Source: Nanoarchaeota archaeon SCGC AAA011-G17 (GTDB lineage Archaea; Nanobdellota; Nanobdellia; SCGC-AAA011-G17). From it: DNA of 48,865 bases. Numbering within the stretch: the first letter of the stretch is position 1; each line of letters starts with the position of its first letter. Below, piece by piece: positions 2,675 through 48,374 of this stretch. The notes beneath the pieces were generated by a model. It searched no databases and had not been told where the DNA came from. It saw only the letters and a program-made list of their open reading frames with translations. The stretch is from assembly GCA_000402515.1 (NCBI GenBank), contig AQRL01000033.1:1-48865 (forward strand), in the 5' to 3' direction. The position numbers and the translations under genes are program-made.

Positions 2675-3352
2675 GTGTTATATTGTAATATGAAATTAAT
2701 AAATTATGACATATACAAATTATCAGAACTAATAGGAATAATAATAGGAGACGGGAATATTTATTATAACCCACAACTAAAAAAGTATTATTTTGAAATT
2801 ACTGGTGACCCAAATTTAGAAAAAGAATATTTTCACCATATTTCTGATTTAATTTTTGATTTATTAAATAAAAAACCAAATATAAGAAAAGGAGGAAGAG
2901 GACTTAGATTAAGATTATATTCAAAAAATTTTGTAGAATTCTTAATTAATATCGTAAAATTGCCTTATGGAGAAGGAAAATGTGAAGTTGTAACTATACC
3001 TGACTGTATATATTCACAAAATTGGGATATAATTAAAAAATGTATAAGGGGCATTACAGATACAGATGGCTCTTTATTCTTATCAAAAAAATACCATAGA
3101 AATGATTATCCTTGTGTAGAGATTAGTACAGTTAGTGAATCTCTAGCTTTTCAACTTAAGGGAATATTGTCCCCACATTATAGGTTAGGTTTTAGGAGTT
3201 TCTCTGCAAAGAATTCCAGAAAAAGATATATTATTTCAATAAATGGAGATATTATGGTAAATAAATGGATTAATGATATTGGTTTTTCTAATCCACATAA
3301 AGGAAGGAAAGCTTATGATATTTTAAAAATGAATGGGACTGGAGGGATTTGA
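2675..3352 (+). CDS. LAGLIDADG-family homing endonuclease, double-motif and free-standing
   Basis: Two LAGLIDADG-type motifs are present: LIGIIIGDGNI and IRGITDTDGSL. The likely true start is the ATG at 2690. The last 19 nt overlap the 3' end of tRNA-Phe on the opposite strand. Confidence 0.8.
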   Translation: MLYCNMKLINYDIYKLSELIGIIIGDGNIYYNPQLKKYYFEITGDPNLEKEYFHHISDLIFDLLNKKPNIRKGGRGLRLRLYSKNFVEFLINIVKLPYGEGKCEVVTIPDCIYSQNWDIIKKCIRGITDTDGSLFLSKKYHRNDYPCVEISTVSESLAFQLKGILSPHYRLGFRSFSAKNSRKRYIISINGDIMVNKWINDIGFSNPHKGRKAYDILKMNGTGGI

Positions 3353-3603: not shown

Positions 3604-4320
3604 ATGGCTAATTTAAAAAAGATAGGGAGTTTTTTAAAAAGAAGTTTATTAATTACTCTCGCAGCAGGAGCAGTATATTATGCAGGCTTAAAACAAAATC
3701 CTTCTTTTCAAGAATTAACACCCAAAGTACAACAGGTATTAATACAAGAACATAATCAACTTGATAATCTATTAAAAAGTGTTTCTGATGATTTTATAAA
3801 GGGTAATTTTAAAGAGGCTATGGCTAAATTCGGAAATTGTGAAAAATTAGTAAATATGTTAAGTAAGATAGACCCTAAATTTAATGAACTAAAGCCAAGA
3901 TTAGCGGAATATCAACAATTCATAAACTTAATAGGGTTGGCTGTAGATTATGTGGATTATCAAAATAAATATATAAATAATTTAAAAATTGATAAAATAT
4001 CATCAGAATCAATTCTTAATATTGTAACTAGAGATATTCATGAAAATTATATCAGTGACCTAATTACATTTAGTCATAATCCAGGTATTAGCCCAGAGAT
4101 AAGAAAACTTGCACTTAGCGCATCCCAACAATTTTATAAAGAAAGACTAGGTATTATGATAGATTTACGTGATCAAATATTAAAACAAAAAAACCGAGTT
4201 TCTAGTCCTAAACAAGTTCAACAGATTGAAGAGGCATTAAGAATTCTTAATCAAATGATTATCCCTAGGGTGGAAGGACAACTTGAAATTATTGAACAAG
4301 CACTTAAAAGATTAAAATAA
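3604..4320 (+). CDS. Hypothetical membrane-anchored protein
   Basis: Long ORF with an N-terminal hydrophobic helix (LLITLAAGAVYYAGL). I recognise no family motif. Confidence 0.5.
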   Translation: MANLKKIGSFLKRSLLITLAAGAVYYAGLKQNPSFQELTPKVQQVLIQEHNQLDNLLKSVSDDFIKGNFKEAMAKFGNCEKLVNMLSKIDPKFNELKPRLAEYQQFINLIGLAVDYVDYQNKYINNLKIDKISSESILNIVTRDIHENYISDLITFSHNPGISPEIRKLALSASQQFYKERLGIMIDLRDQILKQKNRVSSPKQVQQIEEALRILNQMIIPRVEGQLEIIEQALKRLK

Positions 4321-4668
4321 TCTATATTCTTGAATTGAATAATTGTATAACCTCTTTGGAATAATTACATTAACTTGACATATTTTGTAAGTTCCAGATA
4401 TTTTTTATAGTGTGCTCTGAAGTGACATATGTCACCACCTTAACAGCAGTTTAAATTTAGTAATCTTAACGTCTATAATTAATCATGAGCCTTATTTTTA
4501 TAGTGTTTCTAACACATTTTTATGCAATTTAATAAAAAATCTTTATCGTCAATAAAATTCAATAATCAACTAGTGCCAAATGTCATTGCAGAGCACAAGA
4601 TATTTTTTATAGAAAGGTTTATATTGTAGTTTTTGTTTAGTTTACTGATAAATATATGAGGTGCTTTT

Positions 4669-5208
4669 ATGATGAGATATAACAAAAGGGGTGCTTTAGA
4701 ACTTTCTATGAATACTATTATTATAATTGTTATTGGTGTTACCTTATTGACTTTAGGAATAACATGGGTTAGAAACACTATGGGAAGTGTCAGTGGATTG
4801 AGTGACAAGGCTTTTGAAAATGCTGAGAGAGTATTAGCAGGCGGAGAGGACTTTGAGGGGGCAGTAAATGCTCCTAGCCAGTTAAGCTTGAAGAAAGGAG
4901 AGATAAAACAAGCCATATTTAAAGTTAGAAATACTGGGGAAGATACTAATGATGGGTCTGGAACTTTTAGTATATCAATAGGCAGTACCCCTAATCAAGA
5001 ATTAACCACAATAACTCCTACAGATTGTTTGGTTGTAAAGGCAGTTGGATTAAGTAGTAAATCAATTGATATGGGAAAAGCAGGTGAATTTAGCGTTGGA
5101 ATTTCTGCAAAAAACAGCTGTTCAACAGGGGTTGCAGTATTTCCTGTCTCTATACAAGCAAATGGAAAAGAGATTAGTTCAAGACCATTATATATAACCA
5201 TTAAATAG
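4669..5208 (+). CDS. Archaeal type IV pilin-like protein (class III signal peptide)
   Basis: The N-terminus MMRYNKRGALELSMNTIIIIVIGVTLLTLG has a charged head, a G/A cleavage-like site and a hydrophobic helix. A GAGGTG Shine-Dalgarno-like sequence lies upstream. Confidence 0.55.
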   Translation: MMRYNKRGALELSMNTIIIIVIGVTLLTLGITWVRNTMGSVSGLSDKAFENAERVLAGGEDFEGAVNAPSQLSLKKGEIKQAIFKVRNTGEDTNDGSGTFSISIGSTPNQELTTITPTDCLVVKAVGLSSKSIDMGKAGEFSVGISAKNSCSTGVAVFPVSIQANGKEISSRPLYITIK

Positions 5209-24685: not shown

Positions 24686-24993
24686 CAGAAGAATTAAAAG
24701 GGAAAATAGTTTACCTTGGAAAAGGGATAGGAAGAGACTATTATTTAAATTTCAGAGGTGAAAAGAATAAAGTAGATTCTTCTGCCCAAAATTTTGATAG
24801 TATAGAACATGTAGTAGAAGCATTGGCAAATCCTGAAAGAAATGGGATTGATAGTAAATATCTAGGAAAGAGGAGAAAATTCAGTATGATTATTGATGAT
24901 GAGATATCTGATGAAGATTTATCTTATTTAGTGAAAGAAAAAGAAAAACGAAGAATTAAGTTAATGCATTTTGAAAGAGCCAGAGATTTATAA
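24682..24993 (+). CDS. Hypothetical protein
   Basis: ORF with a 4-nt overlap to the upstream gene. Confidence 0.35.
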   Translation: MTEELKGKIVYLGKGIGRDYYLNFRGEKNKVDSSAQNFDSIEHVVEALANPERNGIDSKYLGKRRKFSMIIDDEISDEDLSYLVKEKEKRRIKLMHFERARDL

Positions 24994-25782
24994 ATTATAG
25001 CATTCTTCTCTCAAAGAACAGGCATTGCACTTATTTTTATTTTCCAGTATTCCAGGAGGGTTATCTGCATTCAGAATTTCTTTTATTTCCGTTATTGTAT
25101 TTCTAACTTCAATTTCTGAGAAAGGGTTTAGGATTATTTTCCTGTTTTCATTTGTTTTTATGAAATGAATAAATCCGTGGGTTACTGTCTTGCCCATATT
25201 TTCTTTTGCAAGAAGCATGTAAGAGATTAATTGGATTTTCTGCCCTGGCCAGACTCCATCTCTTGGAGGAGTTCCTGTTTTTAATTCATATGGGATTAGT
25301 GAGCCTTCTGTTAATTCCAATCTGTCTATTATTCCCTTTAATTCTAATCTTTCTGAGTATAGTTTTATTTCTGTAAGGTATTTTGGGGTTAATTTTTCCC
25401 AGAGCTCTTTTCCATAAATATTATTTTTTTGTATAAATGAGAGCACATTGCCTGCCCTTAGCTCTGCCTCTTCCTGAAATCTCGGCCATATATCATGAAA
25501 TACATCTAGTGATTTAAGAGAAAACTCCTTTAGATTGGATTCCTTTAAAATTGATTTTAGTAATGTAAAATAGGTTTTGCTGTATAATTCTTTTATATTT
25601 GTAGATTCTGTTATTGAAGAGACTATTGATTCATCCAATTTGTTTATCTTATCAAACATTGCATGATTTATTGAGCCAAGAAGAAGGATTTCTGATGGGG
25701 GCTCTGGAAACTCCAAGACTTGCTGAAGATATAATTTTCTTGGGCAATACAAATAAGTGGATAGATCTGTTACAGAGAACAT
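24988..25782 (-). CDS. Cas4-family PD-(D/E)xK nuclease (DUF83-like), not CRISPR-associated here
   Basis: N-terminal YLYCPRK Cys, a C-terminal CNACSLREEC cluster, and an EL-K nuclease core (IPYELKTG). Confidence 0.65.
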   Translation of the reverse strand: MFSVTDLSTYLYCPRKLYLQQVLEFPEPPSEILLLGSINHAMFDKINKLDESIVSSITESTNIKELYSKTYFTLLKSILKESNLKEFSLKSLDVFHDIWPRFQEEAELRAGNVLSFIQKNNIYGKELWEKLTPKYLTEIKLYSERLELKGIIDRLELTEGSLIPYELKTGTPPRDGVWPGQKIQLISYMLLAKENMGKTVTHGFIHFIKTNENRKIILNPFSEIEVRNTITEIKEILNADNPPGILENKNKCNACSLREECYNL

Positions 25783-25814
25783 AAGGGCTTATAGTTAATA
25801 ATTGTTTATAAAGC

Positions 25815-25843
25815 CTGCGCTGGCATGTCAAGTGTGTCATGTG
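25815..25843 (-). promoter_or_regulatory. Second copy of the 29-nt upstream element, abutting the TATA box of the Cas4-like gene
   Basis: The minus strand reads CACATGACACACTTGACATGCCAGCGCAG, then GCTTTATAAA. The ATG at 25782 is ~26 nt from the TATA centre, the same spacing as at 2629-2690. Confidence 0.5.
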
Positions 25844-25845
25844 AA

Positions 25846-27306
25846 TTATTTCTTTCCTTTTATTTTAGATAATGCGTATCTTACTGGATTTTTGAACCTT
25901 AATTCTTCTTGAGAAACCTGAACACCCATATCTGCATAATAGGCCTTATTATCATAGTTTGGCGGCGGAAGGACTTCTTTCTGCCTTTTCTGATACGATA
26001 ATTGTGATTTGATATAACCCCATTTTAATTGGGGCTCATTCTTTTCATTCCATTCTTTTAGAATTTTTTCTATGCTATCTAAATCCCAGCCAGCACACCT
26101 CAAAAAGTTTATTAAAATAAAGACTGCTCTTTTCTTTCCATCTTTTAATCCTTTAAGAATATAATTTATTGATGGCGGGAAATCTTTTTCAGGCAGTGCT
26201 GTTGATGGTATCTTGAAGTCTTTTTTTGGCTCTTCTTCTATTGTTATTGATGGCGAATGATCATATGCCTGAATTAATAATCCTTTTGCTTCTCCTGGTT
26301 GTGGTTTTTTGAAAAAGGATGTTACTTCAGATATGTTCTCAATCTTTGCCTGTTTTTTTTCAAATTCCAGTATTTTATCCGGGTCTATTGGAACAGATAT
26401 TAACCCTGATTTTTCATGATGAGAGTATGGAGCACGGTATAAATGCCGTGAAGATATCAATAAGGTGTCTATATCCATTAAGGCATTCATATCAAACTTT
26501 TCTATATATTCTGCTGAATTGCAGTATTTGCATTTGAAATCCTTTGTCTTGGGTTTTGTCATTAATTTCTTGCATTTTGGGCATGTTTTGTATTTTGTTA
26601 TAAAATTTTCCTTTAGTGTGAAATTGCAGTTTGGACAGATAAATTCAGTTTCTGTAATTATTTTTTCCCCTTGTTTTTGACATCTTTTACACATCACTTT
26701 AATTGCTGATTTTCCTTTTTCGGTAAAATATCTTATCAGCTCCCTTTCGGTTATATTCTGCAGAATGTAATTTGATAACTCGTAATCTGTTTTTTCTGAG
26801 TCTATATAATCCATTAGATATTGGGTTATTCTTTTTGGTGCTTCTGGAAATAAATCTGTTATTTTCTGATTGTTTATTGTTTTTGGAAAGGCTTCAAATG
26901 GGACTGAGATATGCAGACCTTTATTCCCTGAAAATTTACAGCCTATTGCTTTAACTCCATGCGCTTTTAGTGCTTTGATTATTAAAAATGCGATATATTT
27001 TGCATAATCCCAGAATTTGCAGTCAATATCTATTATCAAGTCCCAGCCGATTCTTAGTTCATCCAATTGCTTCTGAGACATTCCTGATTTTAACTTTAGG
27101 GGGTTTGACCAATGCTCTTCTGACAGATGAAAAGATGTTGCTCCTGATTTTATAAACTCAATAATATCATTTGGGAATTCCAAGGTATCCGGTCTCTTGC
27201 CAAAATTGTCTCCTGAGCGTATAGAGAACTCTTTATTTTTTGCACAATTAAATATCTCTTCCTGGATATCCTTTCTTGAGTAAAATTTCAAAAGCTCATT
27301 CTTCAT
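25846..27306 (-). CDS. priS: DNA primase, AEP catalytic PriS domain fused to a C-terminal helical PriL/PriX-like domain
   Basis: DLIIDIDC and SGNKGLHISVP catalytic motifs, an internal multi-CxxC zinc module, and a ~120-aa helical C-terminal domain. Confidence 0.7.
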   Translation of the reverse strand: MKNELLKFYSRKDIQEEIFNCAKNKEFSIRSGDNFGKRPDTLEFPNDIIEFIKSGATSFHLSEEHWSNPLKLKSGMSQKQLDELRIGWDLIIDIDCKFWDYAKYIAFLIIKALKAHGVKAIGCKFSGNKGLHISVPFEAFPKTINNQKITDLFPEAPKRITQYLMDYIDSEKTDYELSNYILQNITERELIRYFTEKGKSAIKVMCKRCQKQGEKIITETEFICPNCNFTLKENFITKYKTCPKCKKLMTKPKTKDFKCKYCNSAEYIEKFDMNALMDIDTLLISSRHLYRAPYSHHEKSGLISVPIDPDKILEFEKKQAKIENISEVTSFFKKPQPGEAKGLLIQAYDHSPSITIEEEPKKDFKIPSTALPEKDFPPSINYILKGLKDGKKRAVFILINFLRCAGWDLDSIEKILKEWNEKNEPQLKWGYIKSQLSYQKRQKEVLPPPNYDNKAYYADMGVQVSQEELRFKNPVRYALSKIKGKK

Positions 27307-27388
27307 AAAATATAACCCCTATGATAAAAAAAGATGATAGTTTATAAAGATTTATTTTATTGAGATTCTAATAATTTATATTGATGTA

Positions 27389-28414
27389 TTAGAAGAGGTT
27401 AGAAGTACAAATTTTTTTTATAACTTCTTTTCTTAATTTATAACTATCGGCCCATTTTGCATAAGCATCCCAACCTTGAAAAATTTCAAACAGCTTTTCT
27501 TTAGAAACTTCATTTTTCTTGTATCTATCAAAAACAAATAACATTTTTCTAATATTCCTTTTTCTTAATAGCCTATAATGATAAAAATTCCTAAATCCAA
27601 CAAAATCTATTCCTCTAGACAAAGAGCTTATCTTTGACTTTTCAGGATGAAGCTCAATTTTTAATTTCTCTTTCAGAAATTTGTCAATTTCAGATTTCCA
27701 GAATTCAAGCTGTGACTTTGACTTATGAAGAATTACAAAATCATCAACATATCTAATATAATATTTAGCCTTTAGTTTATGTTTTACAAAATAATCTAAT
27801 TCATTAAGGTAAACATTAGCAAAAAATTGTGAAGTTAGATTTCCCAAAGGCATCCCTGTTCCTTTATTTTTAGAATCAAAATTATTTAATATTAATTTGA
27901 TAAGAGAGATTACTTCTTTATCTTTTATTTTTCTTCTGATAATATTTATCAAAATTTCATGAGAAACAGTTTCAAAATAATGCCTAATATCTGCTTTAAG
28001 GCAGAATGCGTTTGATTTAAAATTATTTGTTACTTTTCTTTTAAAATAATCAAATCGTTTAATTGCAAATAAATTTCCTTTCCCTATTCTATTTGCACAT
28101 GAATCATAAATAAATCCCCTGTCAAAAATTGGTTCAATTATTCTTATTAAATCATGATGAACAATTCTATCCCTAAAATCAGACTTGCTTATCTTTCTAG
28201 TTTTAGGATCTCGCAAAATAAAAGTTTTTAGAGGCAATGGGTTGTAGGTATGATTCTTTAATTCTTCAGATAGTTTAAGCAAATTTACTAAAGTATCTTT
28301 TTCAAATTCAATTACATAATATTTACTTGTTTTGTGTTTTCTAGCTTTTCTCCAAGCTAAAAGTAAATTACTAAGATTATAAATTTCCTGATAAAGTTCA
28401 TTATTAGTTTCCAT
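27389..28414 (-). CDS. DGR reverse transcriptase (DGR-1)
   Basis: RT motifs include LGNLTSQ (the DGR-type [I/L]GxxxSQ) and YIRYVDDFVI (YxDD). TR lies 29 nt upstream. The protein is paralogous to 46221-47324. Confidence 0.9.
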   Translation of the reverse strand: METNNELYQEIYNLSNLLLAWRKARKHKTSKYYVIEFEKDTLVNLLKLSEELKNHTYNPLPLKTFILRDPKTRKISKSDFRDRIVHHDLIRIIEPIFDRGFIYDSCANRIGKGNLFAIKRFDYFKRKVTNNFKSNAFCLKADIRHYFETVSHEILINIIRRKIKDKEVISLIKLILNNFDSKNKGTGMPLGNLTSQFFANVYLNELDYFVKHKLKAKYYIRYVDDFVILHKSKSQLEFWKSEIDKFLKEKLKIELHPEKSKISSLSRGIDFVGFRNFYHYRLLRKRNIRKMLFVFDRYKKNEVSKEKLFEIFQGWDAYAKWADSYKLRKEVIKKICTSNLF

Positions 28415-28443
28415 ATTAGTATAAGAAATCCTGACTTTTGGGC

Positions 28444-28524
28444 TATTCCACGAACCCTGTCGTCGTAGTACAAGTCCCTATTGTTACCATCAAGATCAGA
28501 ACTGTTGTCAAGGCTCCTAAACCA
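28444..28524 (-). repeat. DGR-1 template repeat (TR1)
   Basis: 81 nt aligns without gaps to 28857-28937 at an offset of 413. There are 12 mismatches, all where TR has T on the + strand, i.e. A on the coding strand. Confidence 0.9.
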
Positions 28525-28724
28525 CAGGGAACTTATAGCCAGAATACCATCACAAAAGATTAACTCTTGCCACTGAAGCTTCACGAATGTTGCTTCTGTA
28601 TTTCATGACTTAAAATCAAATTAATGATGTACTAGTAAACTGGCATGTAGTCCAACTTATACTTCACTGATAGTATATCTATATAGTCAGGACATAACTT
28701 TAGAAATAATCTATTTTAAAATAA

Positions 28725-29453
28725 TTATTGTCTTAAACCATCTAGTAGAATCTTTTCAATTCCAGTTAGACCTTTTGTTTTTAGAACTTTTAAGATTTGT
28801 TTTGGAGTGTAAACTTCAGAATTTTTTTTCGTGCCTTCGACACTAACACTATCACGTACCCCACGAACCCTGACGACGCAGTACAAGACCCTACTGTTAC
28901 CACCAAGAACAGAACTGTAGACAAGGCACCTAAACCATATTTGTCTTGCAAAGGATTTTTCCTGCATATCTGCTAACAAAACAGCCATTTCTTTGATTCC
29001 TGCTTCTTCTCTTAAGAATTGCCCGTATTTTTCAGCATTTTCGCCAAAAGCATAAACAGTTATTTCATTATCTTTAAATCTGTTTGTAGGGATTTCTTTT
29101 GATTCTAGGTTGACTGAATCTGCTAATCCTTCCTCAATCTGCTCATCAGTTAAATAAAACTCTTGACCTTTTCTATGACAATCTGTAGCTTCTTTTGCAT
29201 TTGCCATTATTGGTGAATTCTTTGTTAAAAATCTACCTTTATTAAGAATATATAAAACCCCTTCTCTTGTCCAGTTTCCATTTCTAGAGACATAGGCATC
29301 TTTACCTTCCTGTATTCTTAATCTTGCATTTTCTTCTAAAGAAATAATTTTATAGCCATCTTTAACTAATACTTTTTTTCCTTCATCAAAGGGTGCCTCT
29401 GCATAAGCTGATTCTATTCCTCTTGGTTTTACATCAATACTAACTTTTACCAT
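28725..29453 (-). CDS. DGR-1 variable (target) protein, 242 aa, no signal peptide
   Basis: VR encodes aa 173-199 (WFRCLVYSSVLGGNSRVLYCVVRVRGV), against the TR-encoded WFRSLDNSSDLDGNNRDLYYDDRVRGI. A 43-aa conserved tail follows VR. Confidence 0.85.
   Translation of the reverse strand: MVKVSIDVKPRGIESAYAEAPFDEGKKVLVKDGYKIISLEENARLRIQEGKDAYVSRNGNWTREGVLYILNKGRFLTKNSPIMANAKEATDCHRKGQEFYLTDEQIEEGLADSVNLESKEIPTNRFKDNEITVYAFGENAEKYGQFLREEAGIKEMAVLLADMQEKSFARQIWFRCLVYSSVLGGNSRVLYCVVRVRGVRDSVSVEGTKKNSEVYTPKQILKVLKTKGLTGIEKILLDGLRQ
28857..28937 (-). repeat. DGR-1 variable repeat (VR1)
   Basis: See TR1. A-site-only divergence, in frame inside the target gene. Confidence 0.9.
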
Positions 29454-29512
29454 AACTTATTCTAGAAAATAGGTATTTATAAAGCTTTCTATTGTTACTA
29501 CTGATAAATAGA

Positions 29513-29926
29513 TTAATTATTTTTGCTTAACAACTCTTGCAGTTCCTGCTGCAGAGAGCCGGCATGCTGAGCAAATAACTGCAAGTCCTGCTCTAATTTG
29601 TGCGCAATTGCCTGTATCTTTAATGACTGGTCTTTAACAATTTCAATAGTCTCTGCTATTGTTTTTGGAACAACTACATTAGAACCAACATTCATAAGGA
29701 CTTCTTTATTGTTTTTTAATTCTGTTTTAATAAAAATTCCTGGAGAAAGGGCAGTCAGAATTTCATTTTTATCTTTTGATTTTTCAATCTCTTTCAAGGA
29801 TTCTTCCAGATTAGTCAACTCATTTGATTGAGCCTGCAAGGTCATTAACTCCTGCTGATATTCTTTCATCTGCTGTTCTATTATCTGAAATTCAAGATAT
29901 TTCTGCTGAACCTGTTTTTCATCCAT
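29513..29926 (-). CDS. pfdA: Prefoldin alpha subunit
   Basis: Coiled coil, then the beta-hairpin region LSPGIFIKTEL...VLMNVGSNVVVPKTIAETIEIV, then another coiled coil. It follows aIF6 as in many archaea. Confidence 0.8.
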   Translation of the reverse strand: MDEKQVQQKYLEFQIIEQQMKEYQQELMTLQAQSNELTNLEESLKEIEKSKDKNEILTALSPGIFIKTELKNNKEVLMNVGSNVVVPKTIAETIEIVKDQSLKIQAIAHKLEQDLQLFAQHAGSLQQELQELLSKNN

Positions 29927-30587
29927 TTTGAAATCCTAGTGCTGATTCTATTCTCATTATCTCATGACCAGAGGTTAAATCACCTATTATATAGCCATTT
30001 GAATTAGCAATTATGCCAGAACTGACATGAGGATTGCCCATATTAACAGTTCCTATATCTGAAGTAGTTTTAAAAAGCTTTTCTATGTGCTCTATCTCTT
30101 TTTCTGAGGCATCTCTATGAATTATACATCCTTTTGAGGTTATAACCACACAAGAACCGACTGTCGGAGATTCTGCTATCTCTCCCTTAAAAACCTTAAG
30201 ATTAAGTTTTTTTAGCTGGTCTATTGTTTCCTGGTCAAATTCGGGGTTTACCAAACAGGTATCTCCCTTTATTATCATATTATTTCCAAGGGCATTTAAT
30301 TTTGTTTTTATTATTTTATAAGGAATTTTATGCTTTTCTAACTGCTTTATTTCTTCGTCTCTTATTATTTCCGGGACTAATAATAAATCAGAACTTCCTG
30401 TACAGAGTGCTCCAAGCAAATCTGTTCCTGCTATTGAGACTTGATAAACTGGAACACCAAGAACCTGTTTTATTTTTGCAACTATCTTAGAAGAGAGATG
30501 AATCGGCATCAAACAATAAGCATCTGTTGCAAAACAGTATAAGCCTATATTTGGATTTCCATTAAAACTTATTTTTAAAGCATGCAT
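29919..30587 (-). CDS. eif6: Translation initiation factor 6 (aIF6)
   Basis: FNGNPNIGLYCFATDAYCL and a pentameric repeat pattern (GTDLLGALCTG..., LNALGNNMI..., SPTVGSCVV..., NMGNPHVSSGI...). Confidence 0.9.
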   Translation of the reverse strand: MHALKISFNGNPNIGLYCFATDAYCLMPIHLSSKIVAKIKQVLGVPVYQVSIAGTDLLGALCTGSSDLLLVPEIIRDEEIKQLEKHKIPYKIIKTKLNALGNNMIIKGDTCLVNPEFDQETIDQLKKLNLKVFKGEIAESPTVGSCVVITSKGCIIHRDASEKEIEHIEKLFKTTSDIGTVNMGNPHVSSGIIANSNGYIIGDLTSGHEIMRIESALGFQNG

Positions 30588-30588
30588 C

Positions 30589-30942
30589 TTATTCTTCCTC
30601 TATTATAATAAATAATTTTGATCCACCAGCATAACGAGAAACATATTCACTGTGTAATCTCAAGTAATAGACTCCTTCCGGAAGTAAATTAACAAGATAT
30701 GGATCTGCTTTTTCATTAGGTAGCATTAATTGAATTTTACTATCTAATTGTTTTGCCCCATCAAAAAAATTTTCAGAAAACCCCAAGAAAAAATTGGCTT
30801 CTGCTTCTAAACTTGTTGCTCTTATGACTTTTTCATAAAAATATTCTGTTCTTTCTTTAGTTATCTCCAAAAACTCGGATTTACTTATTCTTAATGTTAT
30901 ATCCTGGGAGGAATCAAATTTGGCATGCATCTTATTCTTCAA
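30589..30942 (-). CDS. Hypothetical protein embedded in the ribosomal cluster
   Basis: ORF tightly packed between rpl14e and eif6. I recognise no motif. Confidence 0.4.
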   Translation of the reverse strand: MKNKMHAKFDSSQDITLRISKSEFLEITKERTEYFYEKVIRATSLEAEANFFLGFSENFFDGAKQLDSKIQLMLPNEKADPYLVNLLPEGVYYLRLHSEYVSRYAGGSKLFIIIEEE

Positions 30943-31318
30943 GCTTTTCCTTTATTTCTATTTGTTTGGGTTTTTTCTCTGCTTTAACTTCTTTTTTTGG
31001 CTCTTCTTTTTTCTTTTGTTTTTGTAATGGCTCTTTCTGCTTTCTTATTTTTTTTAATCTTTCAGCAGGTTTTCTTGGCCTTCCTTTCTGCCTTATTGCA
31101 ATACCTTCTGCTTCAAGAACCTTACATACTGCTTCTGTTGATGCTCCTTTTTTTACATCTAATTTTTTTATCGGCTCTAGATGGCTTATATTACATTTTT
31201 TTCTTCTTACATTCCCATCTATCAAGACAAAGTGATCATCGATTTTATCAACTACAATACAATAATTATTTCCATCTCTTCCTGCTGTTTTTACACATAA
31301 TGTCCCTATTTCTATCAT
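30932..31318 (-). CDS. rpl14e: Ribosomal protein eL14 (L14e) with a K/E-rich tail
   Basis: A KOW-like IEIGTLCVKTAGRDGNNYCIVVDKIDDHFVLIDG...RRKKCNISHLEP. Confidence 0.85.
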   Translation of the reverse strand: MIEIGTLCVKTAGRDGNNYCIVVDKIDDHFVLIDGNVRRKKCNISHLEPIKKLDVKKGASTEAVCKVLEAEGIAIRQKGRPRKPAERLKKIRKQKEPLQKQKKKEEPKKEVKAEKKPKQIEIKEKLEE

Positions 31319-31587
31319 TTTTGACTCCTTGTTCTTTCAATTATTTTCTTTCTTGCACATATTGAGCATAGATTTCCGCCAAATGGGCGTGATGGCCTTT
31401 TTTTTGTTTTTGCAATGTTTTTCAGCCTAGAGGCACGAACATGAGAAACTCCCAATAATACAGCCCCACATTCTGCACACTGCGCCTTAGAATCATTTCT
31501 TTTTACGTGATGCAGTTTTACTTTTCCAGCAGGGGTTCTAACAAAAACCCTTCTCTTACTTCTTGATTTATCTTTTCCTGACGGCAT
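31315..31587 (-). CDS. rpl34e: Ribosomal protein eL34 (L34e)
   Basis: KRRVFVRTPAGKVKLHHVKR...CAECGAVL...RPFGGNLCSICARK. Confidence 0.9.
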   Translation of the reverse strand: MPSGKDKSRSKRRVFVRTPAGKVKLHHVKRNDSKAQCAECGAVLLGVSHVRASRLKNIAKTKKRPSRPFGGNLCSICARKKIIERTRSQK

Positions 31588-31588
31588 T

Positions 31589-32119
31589 TTAGTACACCTT
31601 TAAAACCTTTCTTAGTATAATACTAAAGATTATGGCAAAGAGCATATATGACCAAAACCAGCTCAACATACCAAAAATCTTTGGGTCACCAAGGTTTTTA
31701 AATATATCTGAAAACCATTTTATTAAAAATATTAAAGGGGCAATGGTATAAACCAAAGGCTTCATTGTTAGTTCAAAGGTTTTAGGAATATTTTCAAGCT
31801 GTTTTTTCTGGAATTCCATCATCTTTGATGGATCATCTTTATACTTCTTCATCTCTTCTGACATTGCCTTCTGCTCTTCTTTCATATTTTTCAAAGCTTC
31901 CTGATCTGTTGTATATTTCTGAATTATGGTTGTTGCTAATGTTATTAAAAAAGTAATAATAAGGAATCCCCATGAAAAGTCTAATCTTATCAAATAACCA
32001 AGGGTTGGATCAAAAATAAAATGAATTGTATCTTTTATTATAGGGACTGCATCCCATAGCGCAGCAATTAATATACTCAGAAACATTACTAATAACCATA
32101 AAGATATTCCTTTTTTCAT
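31589..32119 (-). CDS. DUF106 / EMC3-TMCO1-like membrane insertase (archaeal YidC-like)
   Basis: Three transmembrane helices with a coiled KNMKEEQKAMSEEMKKYKDDP...QKKQLE loop. The position after secY is conserved. Confidence 0.7.
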   Translation of the reverse strand: MKKGISLWLLVMFLSILIAALWDAVPIIKDTIHFIFDPTLGYLIRLDFSWGFLIITFLITLATTIIQKYTTDQEALKNMKEEQKAMSEEMKKYKDDPSKMMEFQKKQLENIPKTFELTMKPLVYTIAPLIFLIKWFSDIFKNLGDPKIFGMLSWFWSYMLFAIIFSIILRKVLKVY

Positions 32120-33582
32120 TCCCCACCCATCATTTTTCTTAATCCAGGATACATATCCATCATATGATGTTTTGCTATATCTTCATATAACCTGTAAATA
32201 ATCATAACGGTCAATAATAAACCAGTACCATTTGTCAGCGCTCCGAGCAAGTCTGCCGATGCTGCTAGAAATCCTACTGCAATAGCACCCATTATTGTTA
32301 AGGGAAATATATATCTGCTTAAAATTCTTTCCAAGACTCTTTCATCTCTTCTAAATCCTGGAATTTGCAAACCTGAAGCCATTATTTGTTTTGCCTGGCT
32401 TCCTGCATCCATTCCTGCTGTCTGCACCCAGAATATTGAGAATATTACAGCACCGGCTATCATAAATAATGAATAAGTAACTGCCTGCAGCAAAACAATC
32501 CAATTAAATGAGCCAGATGAAAATGCTGCAAATAGTTCAGAAACAATATTTGGAGAGAATGCCCATTTAATCAATCCTGAGACCGGAATATTTCCTGAGA
32601 ACTGCCCAAATATATGCTGGGATATCCAAAACATAATCCCCTGCTGTGCATTTCCAACCCAATTCTGCATCAGCCTTGCCCATAACTGCACATTTGCAAT
32701 CAAAGCAGCGGTTAAAATAACCGGGATATTTGATGTATAAATAAATGCTAACGGCCATCTAATACCATGACCCCTTATTCTGCCAAAACTTAAGGGAATT
32801 TCTACTTTCATAGCCTGTGCGTAAACTGCAAGCACAAAGACCAGTACTGTAGCAAGTATTGTTGCCAAAGCTTTTCCAGCCTCTGTGGGGTTTCCTCCTG
32901 CCAAAGACCTGATTAAAACCCAGATAACTCCTACTGGTGCCTGACCTGTTCCAAATGCCCAGGTTCCTGCACTTGTCAGCGGAGATAATGCCCTGATAAA
33001 TACCTGCTGGGATACTCCTGCTGCTATGAATAGACTTACACCAGAACCAAAACCCCATTTATTGATAACTTCATCTAAATATAATACTATCAAACCACCT
33101 AATGTTAATTGTGCAACTAATAAAAATTCCATCTGCCTGAACAATGCTGGTGCAAGGGCAGGGTCTGGTGACAAACCACCCATAAATACATAGATTGATG
33201 CTTCGAATATTATAAAGAAGATTGCCAAAATTTTTTGTATACCCTGGAAAAATACTCTTCCTTCATGCGTTGTTGTGTCTATATTTATTAACCCCGAGCC
33301 TTTTAATAACTGCAAAACAATGGATGCAGTTACGATTGGACCGATACCAAGCGATAGTATGGAACCAAAGGTTGCTCCAAGAATAATTGATAAAAATTCA
33401 AACTGCGATAAAGCGTTCTGACCTAAGCCATATAATGGGATGGATGATAAAACAAAAAAAAGTACAAGAACAATAAGTGTCCACTTCAGTTTTTCCTTAA
33501 AAGGAAGATGTTTTTGTGATGAACCTTTTATTTCCGGCAGATTTGCCAGTATATTATTAAGCATTGACAACGGAGCCACCAA
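32116..33582 (-). CDS. secY: Preprotein translocase subunit SecY
   Basis: A 10-TM protein (...LPFKEKLKWTL..., GIGPIVTASIVLQLL). Operon position after rpl15. Confidence 0.93.
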   Translation of the reverse strand: MVAPLSMLNNILANLPEIKGSSQKHLPFKEKLKWTLIVLVLFFVLSSIPLYGLGQNALSQFEFLSIILGATFGSILSLGIGPIVTASIVLQLLKGSGLINIDTTTHEGRVFFQGIQKILAIFFIIFEASIYVFMGGLSPDPALAPALFRQMEFLLVAQLTLGGLIVLYLDEVINKWGFGSGVSLFIAAGVSQQVFIRALSPLTSAGTWAFGTGQAPVGVIWVLIRSLAGGNPTEAGKALATILATVLVFVLAVYAQAMKVEIPLSFGRIRGHGIRWPLAFIYTSNIPVILTAALIANVQLWARLMQNWVGNAQQGIMFWISQHIFGQFSGNIPVSGLIKWAFSPNIVSELFAAFSSGSFNWIVLLQAVTYSLFMIAGAVIFSIFWVQTAGMDAGSQAKQIMASGLQIPGFRRDERVLERILSRYIFPLTIMGAIAVGFLAASADLLGALTNGTGLLLTVMIIYRLYEDIAKHHMMDMYPGLRKMMGGE

Positions 33583-34003
33583 CCTGTTCTATTTTTTCCT
33601 TTGCTTTTGATGAAAAGTATGGAATGATTATCTTATATTTATGTGTTGGGTTTCCTGTGCTTAACAGTTTATTGAATTTTGTTTTTTTAAAGTCTATTGT
33701 AATCACATCTTTTTCCTGAATTGCTATTTTTTTGTCTAATAATTTTTGTAATTTTTTCTCAATGTAATCTATTGTTGTTGCATTAGTCTTTTTTCTTGAT
33801 TTAGATATAAACCCTCTTTTTCCAAAATAATCTGCTCCAAAAATCTTGAATGCCCACTGCCTTTTATGGTCTGCTCTTTTTCCTGTCCCGGCTAAACCTC
33901 TTCCACCCCTATTTCCGGCTCCTCTATGCTTCTTCTTAGCTCCCCAACCGTGAGTATGAGAACCTCTCTGCCTTATGTTTTTCCTTCTTTTATAGACAGT
34001 CAT
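33557..34003 (-). CDS. rpl15: Ribosomal protein uL15
   Basis: RGSHTHGWGAKKKHRGAGNRGGRGLAGTGKR. Confidence 0.92.
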   Translation of the reverse strand: MTVYKRRKNIRQRGSHTHGWGAKKKHRGAGNRGGRGLAGTGKRADHKRQWAFKIFGADYFGKRGFISKSRKKTNATTIDYIEKKLQKLLDKKIAIQEKDVITIDFKKTKFNKLLSTGNPTHKYKIIIPYFSSKAKEKIEQVGGSVVNA

Positions 34004-34004
34004 T

Positions 34005-34493
34005 TTATAACATCCTGCTAATTATATCATTTATTTTTTCTTTTCTATATCCCAATGCCCCACCCAAACTAAACGGCCTTTTTATTCCCTTTCTTTCAAA
34101 ACCTTTTGTTGGGGGCTTTAGCCTAAAAAATAATTTTAATCCTGGTATGTCCTTAAGCTCTTTTTTAAATGAAAAGAATTCTTTTGTAAACTGCTCAAAG
34201 GTTAGATTTGTTTTTTCTTTTAAATAATCAGAAGTTAAATTTTTATTTCTTGGAAGTTTAGCTCTAGTCTCTAATAATTGCTTGAATGCTTCTTCGCTAA
34301 TTTCCCCCCAAGTAATATAATCCTTAGCTTTCTTTATCATACCAACATAATGCGGATTATTTTCAATTATTACACAGCTATTTTTTCTGTATAACCTAAG
34401 CATATTTAAGGTGTCTTTGATGTCCTTTCTGACACCTATGCTTCCCCTGATCCTAATTATCGCTAACCTTTTCTTTTCCATCTTTTCCACCAA
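34005..34493 (-). CDS. rpl30: Ribosomal protein uL30
   Basis: LAIIRIRGSIGVRKDIKDTLNMLRLYRKN. Confidence 0.92.
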   Translation of the reverse strand: MVEKMEKKRLAIIRIRGSIGVRKDIKDTLNMLRLYRKNSCVIIENNPHYVGMIKKAKDYITWGEISEEAFKQLLETRAKLPRNKNLTSDYLKEKTNLTFEQFTKEFFSFKKELKDIPGLKLFFRLKPPTKGFERKGIKRPFSLGGALGYRKEKINDIISRML

Positions 34494-35220
34494 CAGTTAC
34501 ACCTGCTTTTTCAATATATTGTGCTGGAATCTTAATTTTATTTAATTTTTTTAATGCGTTAAAGCATGCATAAAGAAGATTTAATTTTGTTGTTGTATTC
34601 CCTCTTGCTTTTGAATAAACATCCCTTATTCCTGCAAATCCCAAAATCTTCCTTACCTGGCCTTCACTAACCAAACCTACTCCTTTTGGTGCGGGCATTA
34701 ATGTAATAACAATACTTCCTGATTTTCCCTGGACCTTGAATGGAATTGAGTGATGAGTTGAACAACCACATTCCCATGAACCACATCCACGAACTACCTG
34801 GATAATATTCAGCTTTGCCTGCCTGATTGCTTTTTCTCTTGCCGGCACTGTTTCTTTTGCTTTTCCTTTTCCTACACCAACATAACCATCTTTATTACCA
34901 ACTACCGCTAATGTAGAGAATTTCGGCTTGTTTCCTTCTCTGGTTTTCTTTTGTGTTTGTTTCCAGATACTTCTCTTCCCTCCACCAAACTTACCCTTTG
35001 ATTGACCTATTGTTAATAAATCATATTGAAGGTCTGGAAGCAAAGTATCCACTATTTCTGACTCAAGTATTTTTTGACCTGTAAATAAAATTTGATTAAT
35101 ATTTGTTATTTCTCCGCTTTTTACTTTTTTACCCAATGCTGTTTTGGGTTTCCATTTCTCTTTATCAAATGTTTTTTCTAATCTTCTTATTCCTGTCTCT
35201 TCACGATTTGTTTTAACCAT
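34453..35220 (-). CDS. rps5: Ribosomal protein uS5
   Basis: FSTLAVVGNKDGYVGVGKGKAKETVPAREKA...GSIVITLMPAPKGVGLV. Confidence 0.93.
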   Translation of the reverse strand: MVKTNREETGIRRLEKTFDKEKWKPKTALGKKVKSGEITNINQILFTGQKILESEIVDTLLPDLQYDLLTIGQSKGKFGGGKRSIWKQTQKKTREGNKPKFSTLAVVGNKDGYVGVGKGKAKETVPAREKAIRQAKLNIIQVVRGCGSWECGCSTHHSIPFKVQGKSGSIVITLMPAPKGVGLVSEGQVRKILGFAGIRDVYSKARGNTTTKLNLLYACFNALKKLNKIKIPAQYIEKAGVTVGGKDGKEKVSDN

Positions 35221-35716
35221 TTTGTTTTAGTATCTTCTCCTTTGTTTGATGGAAAATTTTTTGAATATCATTTTTTTTATAATCAGCAATATGCTTTCCA
35301 GATATCCTGTCCTCTGAGGGGAATACTTCTTCTGAAGCAGATACTTTCAGCCCTGCATCAATTACTCCCTTTAATGCTGCAAAGATTGCTGTTTTTTTAA
35401 CATTCCTTGAAAGCCCAATATCCAAAACAGCTTCGTATATTTTTTTGGACTTTGCTTTCATTCCGCAAAGAAGCCCTGTTAAATATGCTGAAGGGATATT
35501 TGATTTGTGAAATTTCCAATCAAATTTCTTTAACTGATTTGAATGTGTTGATATTAAAATTTTATCTCCATCCGGGCTATATTCAATTATTTGTAACAGG
35601 ATATTATTCAATGACTTTCTTATAACCAAACGCAACTTTCTGGATTTTAGTAATAAAATCCTCTGCTTATAATCTGTTTTTCCTTCTTTCTTCCTTTTGT
35701 ATGGTACTTTGCTCAT
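35213..35716 (-). CDS. rpl18: Ribosomal protein uL18
   Basis: YKRKKEGKTDYKQRILLLKS...LVIRKSLNNILLQII. Confidence 0.92.
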   Translation of the reverse strand: MSKVPYKRKKEGKTDYKQRILLLKSRKLRLVIRKSLNNILLQIIEYSPDGDKILISTHSNQLKKFDWKFHKSNIPSAYLTGLLCGMKAKSKKIYEAVLDIGLSRNVKKTAIFAALKGVIDAGLKVSASEEVFPSEDRISGKHIADYKKNDIQKIFHQTKEKILKQNG

Positions 35717-36162
35717 TGTTTTATTAGATTATGCTCCTTTAAGTATAATGATATGTGTTTTCTTGTTCTGAAGAATCCACCTTTTACTTTTAATCTCATC
35801 TCCCTATATGTTTTGTTTGTTATCAGTTCTTTTTCTTTTAGGGATGTCAGCAAGTCTCTCTGCAGCCTTACTTTATTAATCCATTCTCTCTTGGATGGAA
35901 GTCTTGCTGTTGCCTTTCCCTTTCTTGAACCCTGCCCTTTTCTTCTCCCTTTTTTCTTTTGTTCTGCTGTTTTTTTAACCCTTGAATGTGATTGTGATTG
36001 ATATTGTTTTAATTTTATTACTCCCTGACCTACAAGTGATCTCAAGTCTGCCTTTGTTATTGCCTCTTTTATCTCGGATAGATTATCTTGGTCAAACTGT
36101 ACATGCTTTTTCCCAACCTTAAGCAATTGTGCTGCAATCCTTTTTTGATTTCTTAATTTCAT
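35713..36162 (-). CDS. rpl19e: Ribosomal protein eL19 (L19e)
   Basis: LRNQKRIAAQLLKVGKKHVQFD...KKGRRKGQGSRKG. Confidence 0.92.
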   Translation of the reverse strand: MKLRNQKRIAAQLLKVGKKHVQFDQDNLSEIKEAITKADLRSLVGQGVIKLKQYQSQSHSRVKKTAEQKKKGRRKGQGSRKGKATARLPSKREWINKVRLQRDLLTSLKEKELITNKTYREMRLKVKGGFFRTRKHISLYLKEHNLIKQ

Positions 36163-46220: not shown

Positions 46221-47324
46221 TTAAATTTTTGTTTCTCTTAATAATCTATTCACTTCTATTGATGAAATCTGATTAGAAAACATATACTCAAAATCTTTAG
46301 TGAACTGCTTTCTTAATTTATAAGTATCTGCATGCTTAGCATAAGCAATCCATCCTTCAAAACTTGCATAAATTTTATCATAATCAATCTTCCTTTCATT
46401 TAATTTGTATTTTGTTAATTTATTTCTCATCTTTTTTATATTTCTTTTATTTAATAACTTATGATAATAAAATACCCTGAAGCCCAATAAACTAATTCCT
46501 TTGCTTAATAAAATTATTTTGGATTTATCTGGATGCAATTCTAAGTTTATTGTTTTTAAAAAGGCACCAATCTTATTTTTATAATCAAATAATACCCCAT
46601 AATTATTATGAATTATCACAAAATCATCTACATATCTAATATAATATTTTGCCTTTAATTTATGTTTTACAAAATAGTCTAATTCATTAAGATAAACATT
46701 AGCAAAGAACTGGGAAGTTAGATTTCCCAATGGCATTCCTATCCCTTTATTTTTGGAATTAAAATTATCTAGTATTAATTTAATAAGCAATATTATTTTT
46801 TCATCTTTTATTTTTCTTTTAATAATCTCAATTAAAACTTTGTGAAAAACAGTATCAAAATAGTGCTTAATATCTGCCTTTAAAATATAAGCTTCCCTTG
46901 TATTATTCTTAGTAACTTTCCTTTTAAAATAATCAAATCTTTCCAATGCCTTAAATGCCCCCTTAAATTTTCTATTTGCATACGAATCAAAGATAAATAT
47001 TTTTTCAAATATTGGTTCAATAATATTACACAAAACATGGTGAATAATTCTGTCTTTAAAATCAGACTTGCTTATTTTTCTGGTCTTTGGATCCCTAAGG
47101 ATGAAGGTTTCCAAAGGTTTTGGCCTATAAGAATGAAACATAATTTCTGACCTTAATTGAAGCAGATTTTCCTTAAGATTCTTCTCAAACTCAACAACAT
47201 AATCTTTTTTTGTCTTATTTTTTCTTGCTTTTTTATATGCTAGTTTAATATTTTCATAACTACATAGAGAAATCCATAAATTAGTGTAAGTATGCATTTG
47301 ATTATTAAATGCCTTGGCAAACAC
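46221..47324 (-). CDS. DGR reverse transcriptase (DGR-2)
   Basis: GMPLGNLTSQFFANVYLNELDYFVKHKLKAKYYIRYVDDFVI is identical to the DGR-1 RT over this stretch. By alignment to RT-1 the likely true start is the ATG at 47297, which leaves a 32-nt TR-RT spacer. Confidence 0.9.
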   Translation of the reverse strand: MFAKAFNNQMHTYTNLWISLCSYENIKLAYKKARKNKTKKDYVVEFEKNLKENLLQLRSEIMFHSYRPKPLETFILRDPKTRKISKSDFKDRIIHHVLCNIIEPIFEKIFIFDSYANRKFKGAFKALERFDYFKRKVTKNNTREAYILKADIKHYFDTVFHKVLIEIIKRKIKDEKIILLIKLILDNFNSKNKGIGMPLGNLTSQFFANVYLNELDYFVKHKLKAKYYIRYVDDFVIIHNNYGVLFDYKNKIGAFLKTINLELHPDKSKIILLSKGISLLGFRVFYYHKLLNKRNIKKMRNKLTKYKLNERKIDYDKIYASFEGWIAYAKHADTYKLRKQFTKDFEYMFSNQISSIEVNRLLRETKI

Positions 47325-47329
47325 AGGAT

Positions 47330-47416
47330 TATTCCAACAAAACGAGCATTGTTGTTGATGTTGTTGTTACCATTAAGACCATTGTTGCAGTTGTCGCCAA
47401 CGAACAGCAAACGCCC
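47330..47416 (-). repeat. DGR-2 template repeat (TR2)
   Basis: 87 nt aligns without gaps to 47748-47834 at an offset of 418. There are 10 mismatches, all at TR T on the + strand (coding-strand A). TR encodes the AAY-rich GRLLFVGDNCNNGLNGNNNINNNARFVGI. Confidence 0.92.
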
Positions 47417-47606
47417 GCTATATAGCCTGCTTATCCTTAATTGCAATGCTGTTTCATCTGTTCAATATTTACTAAGTGTCACAGCTGTATTTTATAACCA
47501 TTAAATGGCCATGATAAACAGGCGTGTAGCCCTGAGATATCTAACTATCACAAATCAAGTTAAATAATACCAAGACAAAGTAAAAAAGAGAAAGAAGTTT
47601 AAAAAT

Positions 47607-48374
47607 TTATTTGTATAATGCTTTTATTTTATTTTCATATTCTTTTCTAGTTGCTTTTGGAACAAAATTTTTTGAAACCTTCAAAATTTGCTCTATAGTC
47701 GGTGCTGAAATTTTTTGCGCAGTGCCTTCGGCACTAGCACTACCACGTACCCCAACAAAACGAGCATAGTTGCCGATGCCGTAGTTACCAATAAGACCAT
47801 TGTTGCAGTAGTCGCCAACGAACAGCAAACGCCCTAATGGCTCATCTTTTAAATCATCACAATGCCAGATTCCTATATTATTTCCATAAACCTGTTTAAA
47901 TTTTTCAAGATATCTTTGGGCTCTTTCCTCTCCGCCAATAAAAGGGATAGTTTGGGGATGCTCCAATGCTCTTTCAACTGGAATTACTCCTGAACTTGAA
48001 CTTTTAAGCTTATCATAATCAATAACAAAAACATTCTTATTATCCCCTAAATCCAATAATCTCTGAAATTCATCTACCGGCATAACTCCTGCACCGTTTA
48101 TTCTCTCTGCATTTCTTATATTTTCAGGATTAGAAAGATAATTATCAACATGGACATATACAACTACTGGGTTTCCCTGCTTGGTTCTTCCTGTTGCCCT
48201 TATGCTTGGTGCAGTAAGCCAGTTGCTTAATAAGCTTGAACCTTTAGTTGCTAAAATTTTTGCGTCTATCAGTTCAGGCATGAATAAAGCATGACCGTAT
48301 TTCTGACAGCTTTCTAAGGCTGTAGCCATATCACTATTATAAAACTCTTTTGCTTGCTTTCTGTTTATTTCCAT
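47607..48374 (-). CDS. DGR-2 variable (target) protein, 255 aa, no signal peptide
   Basis: VR encodes aa 181-209 (GRLLFVGDYCNNGLIGNYGIGNYARFVGV). The 46-aa tail is conserved with target 1 (...EGT...P..ILKV.K...). Confidence 0.85.
   Translation of the reverse strand: MEINRKQAKEFYNSDMATALESCQKYGHALFMPELIDAKILATKGSSLLSNWLTAPSIRATGRTKQGNPVVVYVHVDNYLSNPENIRNAERINGAGVMPVDEFQRLLDLGDNKNVFVIDYDKLKSSSSGVIPVERALEHPQTIPFIGGEERAQRYLEKFKQVYGNNIGIWHCDDLKDEPLGRLLFVGDYCNNGLIGNYGIGNYARFVGVRGSASAEGTAQKISAPTIEQILKVSKNFVPKATRKEYENKIKALYK
47748..47834 (-). repeat. DGR-2 variable repeat (VR2)
   Basis: See TR2. Confidence 0.92.

Follow-up and report, generated by a model that had tools for sequence, protein, structure and literature searches.

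The locus at positions 27389–29453 of contig AQRL01000033.1 from Nanoarchaeota archaeon SCGC AAA011-G17 (GenBank assembly GCA_000402515.1; the whole 48,865-nt contig that was analyzed is referred to as the window) raises the question of whether a target gene, a template repeat (TR) and a reverse transcriptase (RT) can make up a working diversity-generating retroelement (DGR) without the accessory protein Avd and, if they can, what takes the place of Avd. Our results indicate that this cassette, DGR-1, is very probably an active, chromosomal, Avd-less DGR of a nanoarchaeon of the DUSEL4 clade. On the minus strand, on which all features of the cassettes described here lie, the target gene (29453–28725) is followed by a 200-nt gap, TR1 (28524–28444), a 29-nt gap and the RT gene (28414–27389). 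An earlier interpretation made from the letters of the DNA (the sequence-only reading) had proposed this layout and assigned it to a DGR; its open reading frame (ORF) coordinates and gaps are correct, and the assignment is supported by a DGR-type RT, by adenine-specific mismatches between TR1 and the variable repeat (VR1), by a pair of initiation-of-mutagenic-homing elements (IMH with the VR, IMH* with the TR) and by VR differences from an ortholog. The placement is also that of a DGR, with the VR in the 3′ part of a coding gene and a non-coding TR 29 nt upstream of the RT ATG.

Ungapped alignment of 28444–28524 with 28857–28937 gives 81 columns with 12 mismatches, at all 12 of which the non-coding copy carries an adenine. 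TR1 has 22 adenines in 81 nt, and the hypergeometric chance of 12/12 mismatches falling on them is 9 × 10−9, which rules out a repeat that arose by chance. The similarity stops abruptly at both ends, and an adenine-tolerant scan of the window found no further VR for TR1. The exact alignment thus reproduces the 81 gap-free positions, the 12 mismatches and the absence of any non-adenine difference that the sequence-only reading had reported, and the TR and target peptides that it quoted agree with the ORF translations; its mention of changes to C-equivalents does not hold, the substitutions being seven A>T and five A>G, with no A>C. Its attribution of all 12 mismatches to mutagenic homing stands for ten of them. 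The last two, at 28447 and 28446 (AA>GG), recur identically in the sister cassette DGR-2 and in the ortholog L001; they are the published, fixed IMH*/IMH difference rather than a product of mutagenesis. The ten remaining differences all lie at codon positions 1 or 2.

The functional parts of the repeats can be delimited accordingly. The diversified part of VR1 (28861–28937) encodes residues 173–198 of the 242-residue target and carries the ten adenine-specific differences from TR1. It is followed by the IMH (28851–28863, TGGGGTACGTG..), the invariant VR 3′ end that marks the VR as recipient. The template proper of TR1 (28448–28524, 77 nt) has 19 mutable adenines, each at codon position 1 or 2, is identical in L001, and adjoins the IMH* (GGAAUAG, 28443–28449). 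GGGGTA is identical in VR1, VR2 and the L001 VR, and GGAATA in the TRs of DGR-1, DGR-2 and L001, in agreement with the published motif pair IMH TGGGGT/IMH* TGGAAT (Paul et al., 2015, PMC4372165); the GAAUA of IMH* is invariant in 30 loci. Downstream of the IMH, and within the target ORF, an inverted repeat with a GAA triloop (GTGTC-GAA-GGCAC, 28831–28843) can be read from the sequence. Its counterpart in DGR-2 is AGTGCC-GAA-GGCACT, and the element that follows the VR was described as a GRA-triloop hairpin (Paul et al., 2015).

Evidence for activity comes from the ortholog. The closest homolog of the target (P0001) is 94% identical, and its 14 residue differences all fall within residues 172–194. 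It is encoded on a syntenic contig, L001, which carries the r-protein operon, eIF6, prefoldin, the target, the RT, a primase and a Cas4-like nuclease. Between the window and L001 the TRs are identical and the ~2.15-kb cassette has 3 differences outside the VR, whereas the VRs have 16 differences inside the repeat, 16/16 of them at TR adenines. Because the TRs are identical, differences outside the VR number three and every VR difference lies at a TR adenine, homing must have been recent: the comparison is direct evidence that, since two near-identical genomes parted only lately, TR sequence has been copied into the VR with errors specific to adenines. At position 28938 (−1 to the VR) the L001 VR has the TR base G and the window VR has A, which fits a soft 5′ limit of information transfer that varies between homing events. 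Outside the cassette, identity to L001 over 25000–36000 is a mosaic: the DGR cassette (VR aside) and a few 500-nt bins, such as 30000–30499, are 99.6–100% identical, and neighboring bins 88–97%, a pattern that may reflect recent recombination or cassette transfer between lineages.

The pattern extends to the lineage of the DGR-1 RT (RT1), which has more than 587 RT relatives in metagenomes. At 37 further loci (among L046–L125), 395 of the 407 TR/VR mismatches lie at TR adenines, with a skewed spectrum (261 A>G, 120 A>T and 14 A>C). The VR is upstream of the TR at every one of these loci, at a distance of 302–493 nt in 33 of the 37, and the TR-to-RT gap is 18–75 nt. Some arrangements of the repeats are less simple. 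One TR serves two VRs in L015 (5512–5596 and 1461–1545) and likewise in L027 (1316–1376 and 5537–5620), and in L003 the adenine-biased match detected for the TR (4734–4812) is outside the adjacent homolog, at and just past the 3′ terminus of a divergent paralog upstream (tblastn match 4211–4792).

RT1 (27389–28414, 341 aa) matches Pfam RVT_1 (E = 5.8 × 10−20), and its best match in the PDB, over its whole length, is the Bordetella DGR RT, bRT (8ub7; E = 1.4 × 10−43), ahead of a retron-type RT (E = 1.8 × 10−21) and of group II intron RTs (E = 1.2 × 10−20 and weaker). The LGNLTSQ and YVDD motifs, which the sequence-only reading had recognized as DGR-type, align with IGSLTSQ and YMDD of bRT, and the DUSEL4 RTs fall in the DGR clade in the published phylogeny. 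NCBIfam, which has no DGR-specific model, returns sub-threshold group II and Drt matches only, the best being the group II RT/maturase TIGR04416 (145.7 bits against a cut-off of 300), and an Rfam scan of the window returned no RNA family of group II introns.

The sequence-only reading had implied that the element was novel, which it is not. The second target in the window (47607–48374) is identical at 255/255 residues to crystallized AvpA (PDB 5IOO), whose source Handa et al. (2016, PMC5006420) record as “OTU1, Contig 3 DGR2” from single-cell genomes of DUSEL4 Nanoarchaeota, and TR1 and VR1 agree, apart from PDF-extraction noise where adenines are highlighted, with the Group iii OTU1 TR (TGGTTTAGGAGCCTTGAC...GGGTTCGTGG) and VR printed in Supplementary Fig. 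4 of Paul et al. (2015). Because both the AvpA sequence and the published TR/VR strings match, the window is identified with published contig 3, and DGR-1 is the locus “OTU1 Contig 3 DGR1” that Paul et al. (2015, Nat Commun 6:6585) include in group iii; what we describe is its rediscovery. DGR-1 was among the first archaeal DGRs reported, its sister cassette encodes a protein of known structure, the avd-less class is recognized, and the element itself adds nothing new. There is no sequence difference between the published locus and the window, and the IMH/IMH* motifs and the GRA-triloop hairpin are described in that paper. The targets were there called orphans of unknown fold, Avd-like ORFs were proposed from isoelectric point (pI) and molecular weight (MW) alone, and the structured leader and TR-closing helices described below are absent from the description. 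What is new here is the evidence of activity from the ortholog, the predicted fold of the target, a model in which an RNA named RT-16 and adjoining helices clamp the TR, and the corrections to the sequence-only reading.

The DGR-1 target (28725–29453, 242 aa) has no Pfam or NCBIfam match, and its homologs, at least 405 DPANN proteins, are all unnamed. The group iii fold was left open in the AvpA structure paper (Handa et al., 2016), and the sequence-only reading had suggested that a predicted structure be examined for a C-type-lectin-like (CLec) fold. An AlphaFold2 model built with 82 homologs has a predicted local distance difference test (pLDDT) score of 92.5 and a predicted template modeling (pTM) score of 0.80, with values below 50 for the hairpin-encoded residues 203–212. 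In a Foldseek search its sole significant PDB fold match is AvpA (5ioo_A; E = 4.9 × 10−7, TM 0.60/0.68, 215 columns), followed by weak matches to animal C-type-lectin domains. At the sequence level the similarity is confined to the C-terminal half (BLASTP, 27% identity over 108 residues, E = 2 × 10−5; hhalign, 93.8% over the C-terminal 104 columns). Of the AvpA family motifs GxxVVVYAH, HPxxxPFxG and RFxGV (Handa et al., 2016), the target keeps only R[FV]xGV, as the IMH-encoded RVRGV; the hhalign alignment places AvpA HPQTIPFIG opposite DNEITVYAFG, and the N-terminal motif lies outside the sequence alignment. The target is therefore predicted with high confidence to be an AvpA-like CLec protein whose 16 variable codons lie in the strand-loop-strand ligand-binding region, and the model points to the same CLec subclass as AvpA. 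Among 44 homologs of the target in reference genomes (L002–L045), only about 10 have an RT within 5 kb, and many of the RT-less homologs match only residues 1–190, so that they are without the VR/IMH/hairpin tail; on these comparisons the DGR-linked targets make up one part of a larger family of DPANN proteins.

The sister cassette DGR-2 (46221–48374), found by repeat search, has the layout of DGR-1: the AvpA gene (47607–48374) with VR2 (47752–47834), an RT-16 RNA (47417–47575), TR2 (47334–47416) and RT2 (46221–47297), which is 62% identical to RT1. TR2 and VR2 differ by eight adenine-specific mismatches and by the same AA>GG IMH difference as in DGR-1.

The sequence-only reading had treated the 200 nt between target and TR1 as a spacer. 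The region is not inert: it contains a conserved structured RNA, Rfam RT-16 (RF03019; 28530–28692, 71.5 bits against a gathering score of 50), immediately 5′ of TR1. The matches in DGR-1 and DGR-2 (the latter with 87.2 bits) are full-length (model positions 1–158) and each ends at its own TR. Of 20 metagenome loci anchored on the RT, 18 carry the same RNA, which in each case ends where the TR begins, and conservation of the intergenic region is strong among loci whose targets share only some 45–65% identity with that of the window. In the study by Weinberg et al. (2017, PMC5737381) only RT-10 is linked to a DGR and RT-16 is not discussed; we found no paper linking RT-16 to DGRs in the literature searched.

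Both arms of the P1 hairpin of the Rfam model have a complement in the stretch that runs from IMH* to the RT start codon. This gives two candidate long-range helices, A and C, which lie outside RF03019 as the model ends at the TR. Helix A would pair the 5′ arm at 28686–28693 (GUCCUGAC) with a 3′ arm at 28428–28435 (GUCAGGAU) that lies 13 nt before the RT start codon, as suggested by duplex energies and examples of compensatory change. Helix C would pair 28648–28655 (UUGGACUA), which ends in the CUA of a near-invariant CUACACGC (CUACAUGC in DGR-1), with 28438–28445 (UAGCCCAA). A further stem, P2, present in the Rfam model structure, joins 28635–28644 (GCCAGUUUAC) to 28538–28547 (GUAUUCUGGC), ending 13 nt before TR1, and is proposed by analogy with Bordetella to be the site at which cDNA synthesis stops. 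When the duplex energies of native partners were compared with those of partners exchanged between loci, for 30 non-redundant loci, helix A (X with D2) gave −16.2 versus −10.2 kcal/mol (p = 4 × 10−12) and helix C (X′+CUA with UAG+D1) −11.6 versus −7.9 kcal/mol (p = 6 × 10−7). The 8 bp of helix C, set on the invariant CUA and UAG anchors, are 91.7% paired against 81.4 ± 1.4 in shuffles, and double-sided changes number 31 against 11.2 ± 2.5 (0/500 shuffles in both cases). RNAalifold, run on an unbiased full-length MAFFT alignment, returns helix C and P2 and little else, P2 as 10 bp with many compensatory changes. Helix C is, we believe, probably real.

An archaeal promoter may lie just upstream of these elements. 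In 17 of 25 loci a TATA-like octamer begins 25–31 nt before the 5′ GUC(C/U) motif, compared with 6.0 ± 2.2 in shuffles (0/1000), and by these position statistics 28712–28721 is a putative TATA box for the DGR RNA of DGR-1. A scan anchored instead on duplex-derived 5′ ends was noisy and not significant (12/30 loci versus 7 ± 2.3). The motif-anchored result suggests a dedicated DGR RNA transcript that begins at helix A.

The absence of avd asserted by the sequence-only reading is upheld for the window. There is no room in the cassette for a gene between target and RT, and no Avd-type Pfam match among ten small ORFs. Two of these, of 75 aa through TR1 (28357–28584, overlapping RT-16/P2, TR1 and the RT start) and of 68 aa through TR2 (47240–47446, overlapping the RNA elements and TR2), have no family match even at E ≤ 1, nor do the eight others, and the two TR-overlapping ORFs were rejected as candidates for Avd. 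Because a TR copies coding sequence, an open frame through it is expected by construction; these ORFs are likely to be spurious and are probably of the kind drawn as “Avd-like” between target and RT, by pI and MW, in 2015 (Paul et al., 2015, Fig. 3 legend). Avd is not universal, being present in about 74% of DGRs; the other 26% lack avd, with none elsewhere in those genomes, and Avd-independent homing by an unknown mechanism has been proposed for them (Wu et al., 2018).

These elements can be assembled into a mechanism for DGR-1. A separate transcript would start from the TATA-box promoter just past the target stop codon and run through RT-16, TR1 and IMH* into the RT ORF. The UAG of IMH* and the next 5 nt would pair with the CUA of CUACACGC and the 5 nt preceding it (helix C), the following segment (GUCAGGAU) would pair with the 5′ end of the transcript (helix A), and P2 would close 13 nt upstream of TR1. 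The TR would thereby become a loop of ~80 nt with both ends meeting at a CUA-CAC-GCC junction, where helix C and P2 are joined by a 3-nt linker. RT1 might initiate at the IMH* end, possibly from A28648, and make an error-prone copy of the TR, the errors arising opposite its adenines, until P2 halted it; the cDNA would then replace VR1 beside the IMH and the GAA-loop hairpin, the RNA scaffold standing in for the role that Avd has in Bordetella. In its widest form, this proposal would have RT-16 make a large DPANN DGR lineage Avd-independent as a circularly permuted, 5′ equivalent of the Bordetella spacer (Sp), with the invariant A28648 of CUA|CACGC, opposite IMH*, as the cis-priming nucleotide, P2 as the stop, and the choice between P1 and helices A and C as a licensing switch. 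We put this wider form forward as a speculation that may well be wrong. If true, it would give DGRs a retron-like priming topology and provide a minimal two-part system, an RT and about 290 nt of RNA, for programmable mutagenesis.

Several points weigh against an active, Avd-less DGR organized by its own RNA, and they bear on the alternatives to differing degrees. The activity of DGR-1 is judged from one pairwise comparison, that of the window with L001, and its VR-side hairpin contains a T·G pair and has a fold energy no better than those of shuffles (z-scores near 0 for VR-side hairpins folded alone). Such an imperfect hairpin would suit a fossil cassette, in which the RT or the RNA is dead and the TR/VR differences are old, but the RT ORF is intact with all its catalytic motifs, and the VR differs from that of L001 at 16 TR adenines when only 3 of about 2150 non-VR positions differ and the TRs are identical; decay of this kind is very improbable. 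There is next to no chance that RT1 is the enzyme of a group II intron or of a retron, with a coincidental repeat beside it. The best sub-threshold NCBIfam match, to a group II RT/maturase, and the retron-like topology of the proposed RNA would speak for such an origin, but the match to bRT is better by more than 20 orders of magnitude than that to any group II or retron RT, RT1 lacks any maturase or endonuclease extension, the Rfam scan of the window gave no RNA family of group II introns, and the confinement of all 12 mismatches to adenine would be left as an accident.

The RNA model is more exposed. The local P1 pairing of the Rfam model also covaries (p = 2 × 10−9), which makes helix A and P1 competing or alternative states; the loci that supply the covariation are related to one another, and the helix was first noticed in the same sequences. 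The long-range pairing might then not be a functional RNA structure at all, with only local P1 forming and the post-TR segment resembling P1 for another reason, as a DNA-level inverted repeat or as a translational element of the RT, the 3′ arm of helix A being 5–30 nt from the RT start codon across loci and hence placed to regulate translation. We rate this explanation as unlikely, though worth keeping in mind, as two invariant motifs anchor helix C without a gap, compensatory changes occur in five of its pairs, pairing falls to 24–49% when the register is shifted by one to three positions, and RNAalifold chose the helix on the unbiased alignment. In DGR-1 itself P1 has seven non-canonical pairs, whereas helix A forms 8/8 and helix C 7/8 pairs. 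Taken together, P1 and the long-range pairs suggest two alternative conformations, possibly a switch. An Avd-like protein could also be supplied after all, by the 75-aa ORF or by a gene elsewhere in the genome. Avd-like ORFs were indeed drawn by Paul et al. (2015), Bordetella bRT needs Avd for its activity (Handa et al., bioRxiv 10.1101/2023.10.23.563531), and an unrecognized accessory protein could be encoded beyond the 48.9 kb that were examined. Against this, the TR-overlapping ORFs lie over RT-16/P2, the TR and the RT start, match no Pfam family and are open for the reason given above, the VR-to-TR spacing of 302–493 nt leaves no room for a gene, and no avd was found elsewhere in the genomes of avd-less DGRs (Wu et al., 2018); we regard a hidden Avd as distinctly unlikely. 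The priming site, the stop site and the replacement of Avd are analogies rather than observations.

Two genes that are syntenic in L001 directly follow RT1 (24988–27306, minus strand). One encodes a 486-aa protein that resembles the primase small subunit and carries zinc ribbons, the other a 264-aa nuclease of the Cas4/PD-(D/E)XK type. A 46-nt inverted repeat (TTCACTTGACACACTTGACATGTCAGCGCAG...), 83% complementary, has its arms 23 kb apart at 2627–2672 and 25800–25845, the latter immediately beyond the primase gene next to RT1. A 225-aa ORF at 2675–3352 on the plus strand contains two LAGLIDADG-like motifs (IIGDGN and TDTDGS), as read from its translation only.

The positioning and bounding of reverse transcription in avd-less DGRs were left explicitly open by Wu et al. 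(2018), and the covariation-supported TR clamp is a testable model of how they are achieved; the RT-16/TR-clamp model may, by analogy, explain Avd independence, and it is relevant to smaller DGR-based mutagenesis tools. RT-16, an orphan in Rfam, gains a context as the TR leader of a DPANN DGR lineage, and the predicted CLec fold of a group iii target extends the pattern of DGRs that diversify CLec scaffolds. The likeness of this target to AvpA includes the order of its parts, since in both proteins an internal VR is followed by a disordered, hairpin-encoded segment and then by C-terminal helices; the N-terminal half of the target, in contrast, has no sequence match to AvpA.

The RNA proposed for DGR-1 resembles the retron msr-msd RNA in topology only. 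Retrons have an a1/a2 stem with a branch nucleotide, and priming is from a 2′-OH. In both systems sequence 5′ of a structured RNA would form a duplex with sequence 3′ of the template, and a candidate priming nucleotide, A28648 in DGR-1, stands at the end of the 5′ strand. The two differ in that RT1 belongs to the DGR clade and not the retron clade and that the product of DGR-1 would home into a VR; branched msDNA made from an msr/msd RNA is a hallmark of retrons.

The closest comparison is with the DGR of Bordetella phage BPP-1, for which a bRT-Avd-RNA structure is available (PDB 8ub7). The two share homologous RTs, adenine mutagenesis and the IMH/IMH* logic, but DGR-1 has no Avd, its target is chromosomal rather than a phage tail fiber, and its TR-to-RT gap is 29 nt compared with about 140 nt in BPP-1. 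The Nanoarchaeota DGR RNAs considered by Handa et al. (bioRxiv 10.1101/2023.10.23.563531) extended only 40 nt upstream of the TR, a scope that could not reach the DGR-1 elements because these lie roughly 125–170 nt upstream of it. In the Bordetella ribonucleoprotein a template:primer duplex between TR117–129 and Sp47–56, with priming at A56, is separated by 2 nt from the cPRT Stop duplex (Handa et al., bioRxiv 10.1101/2023.10.23.563531). DGR-1 would be similar in having, beside the duplex at the TR 3′ end, another duplex with its opposite strand immediately before the TR, the linker being 2–3 nt across the two systems. The strand that the two duplexes share, however, is 3′ of the TR, in Sp, in BPP-1, and would be 5′ of the TR, in RT-16, in DGR-1.

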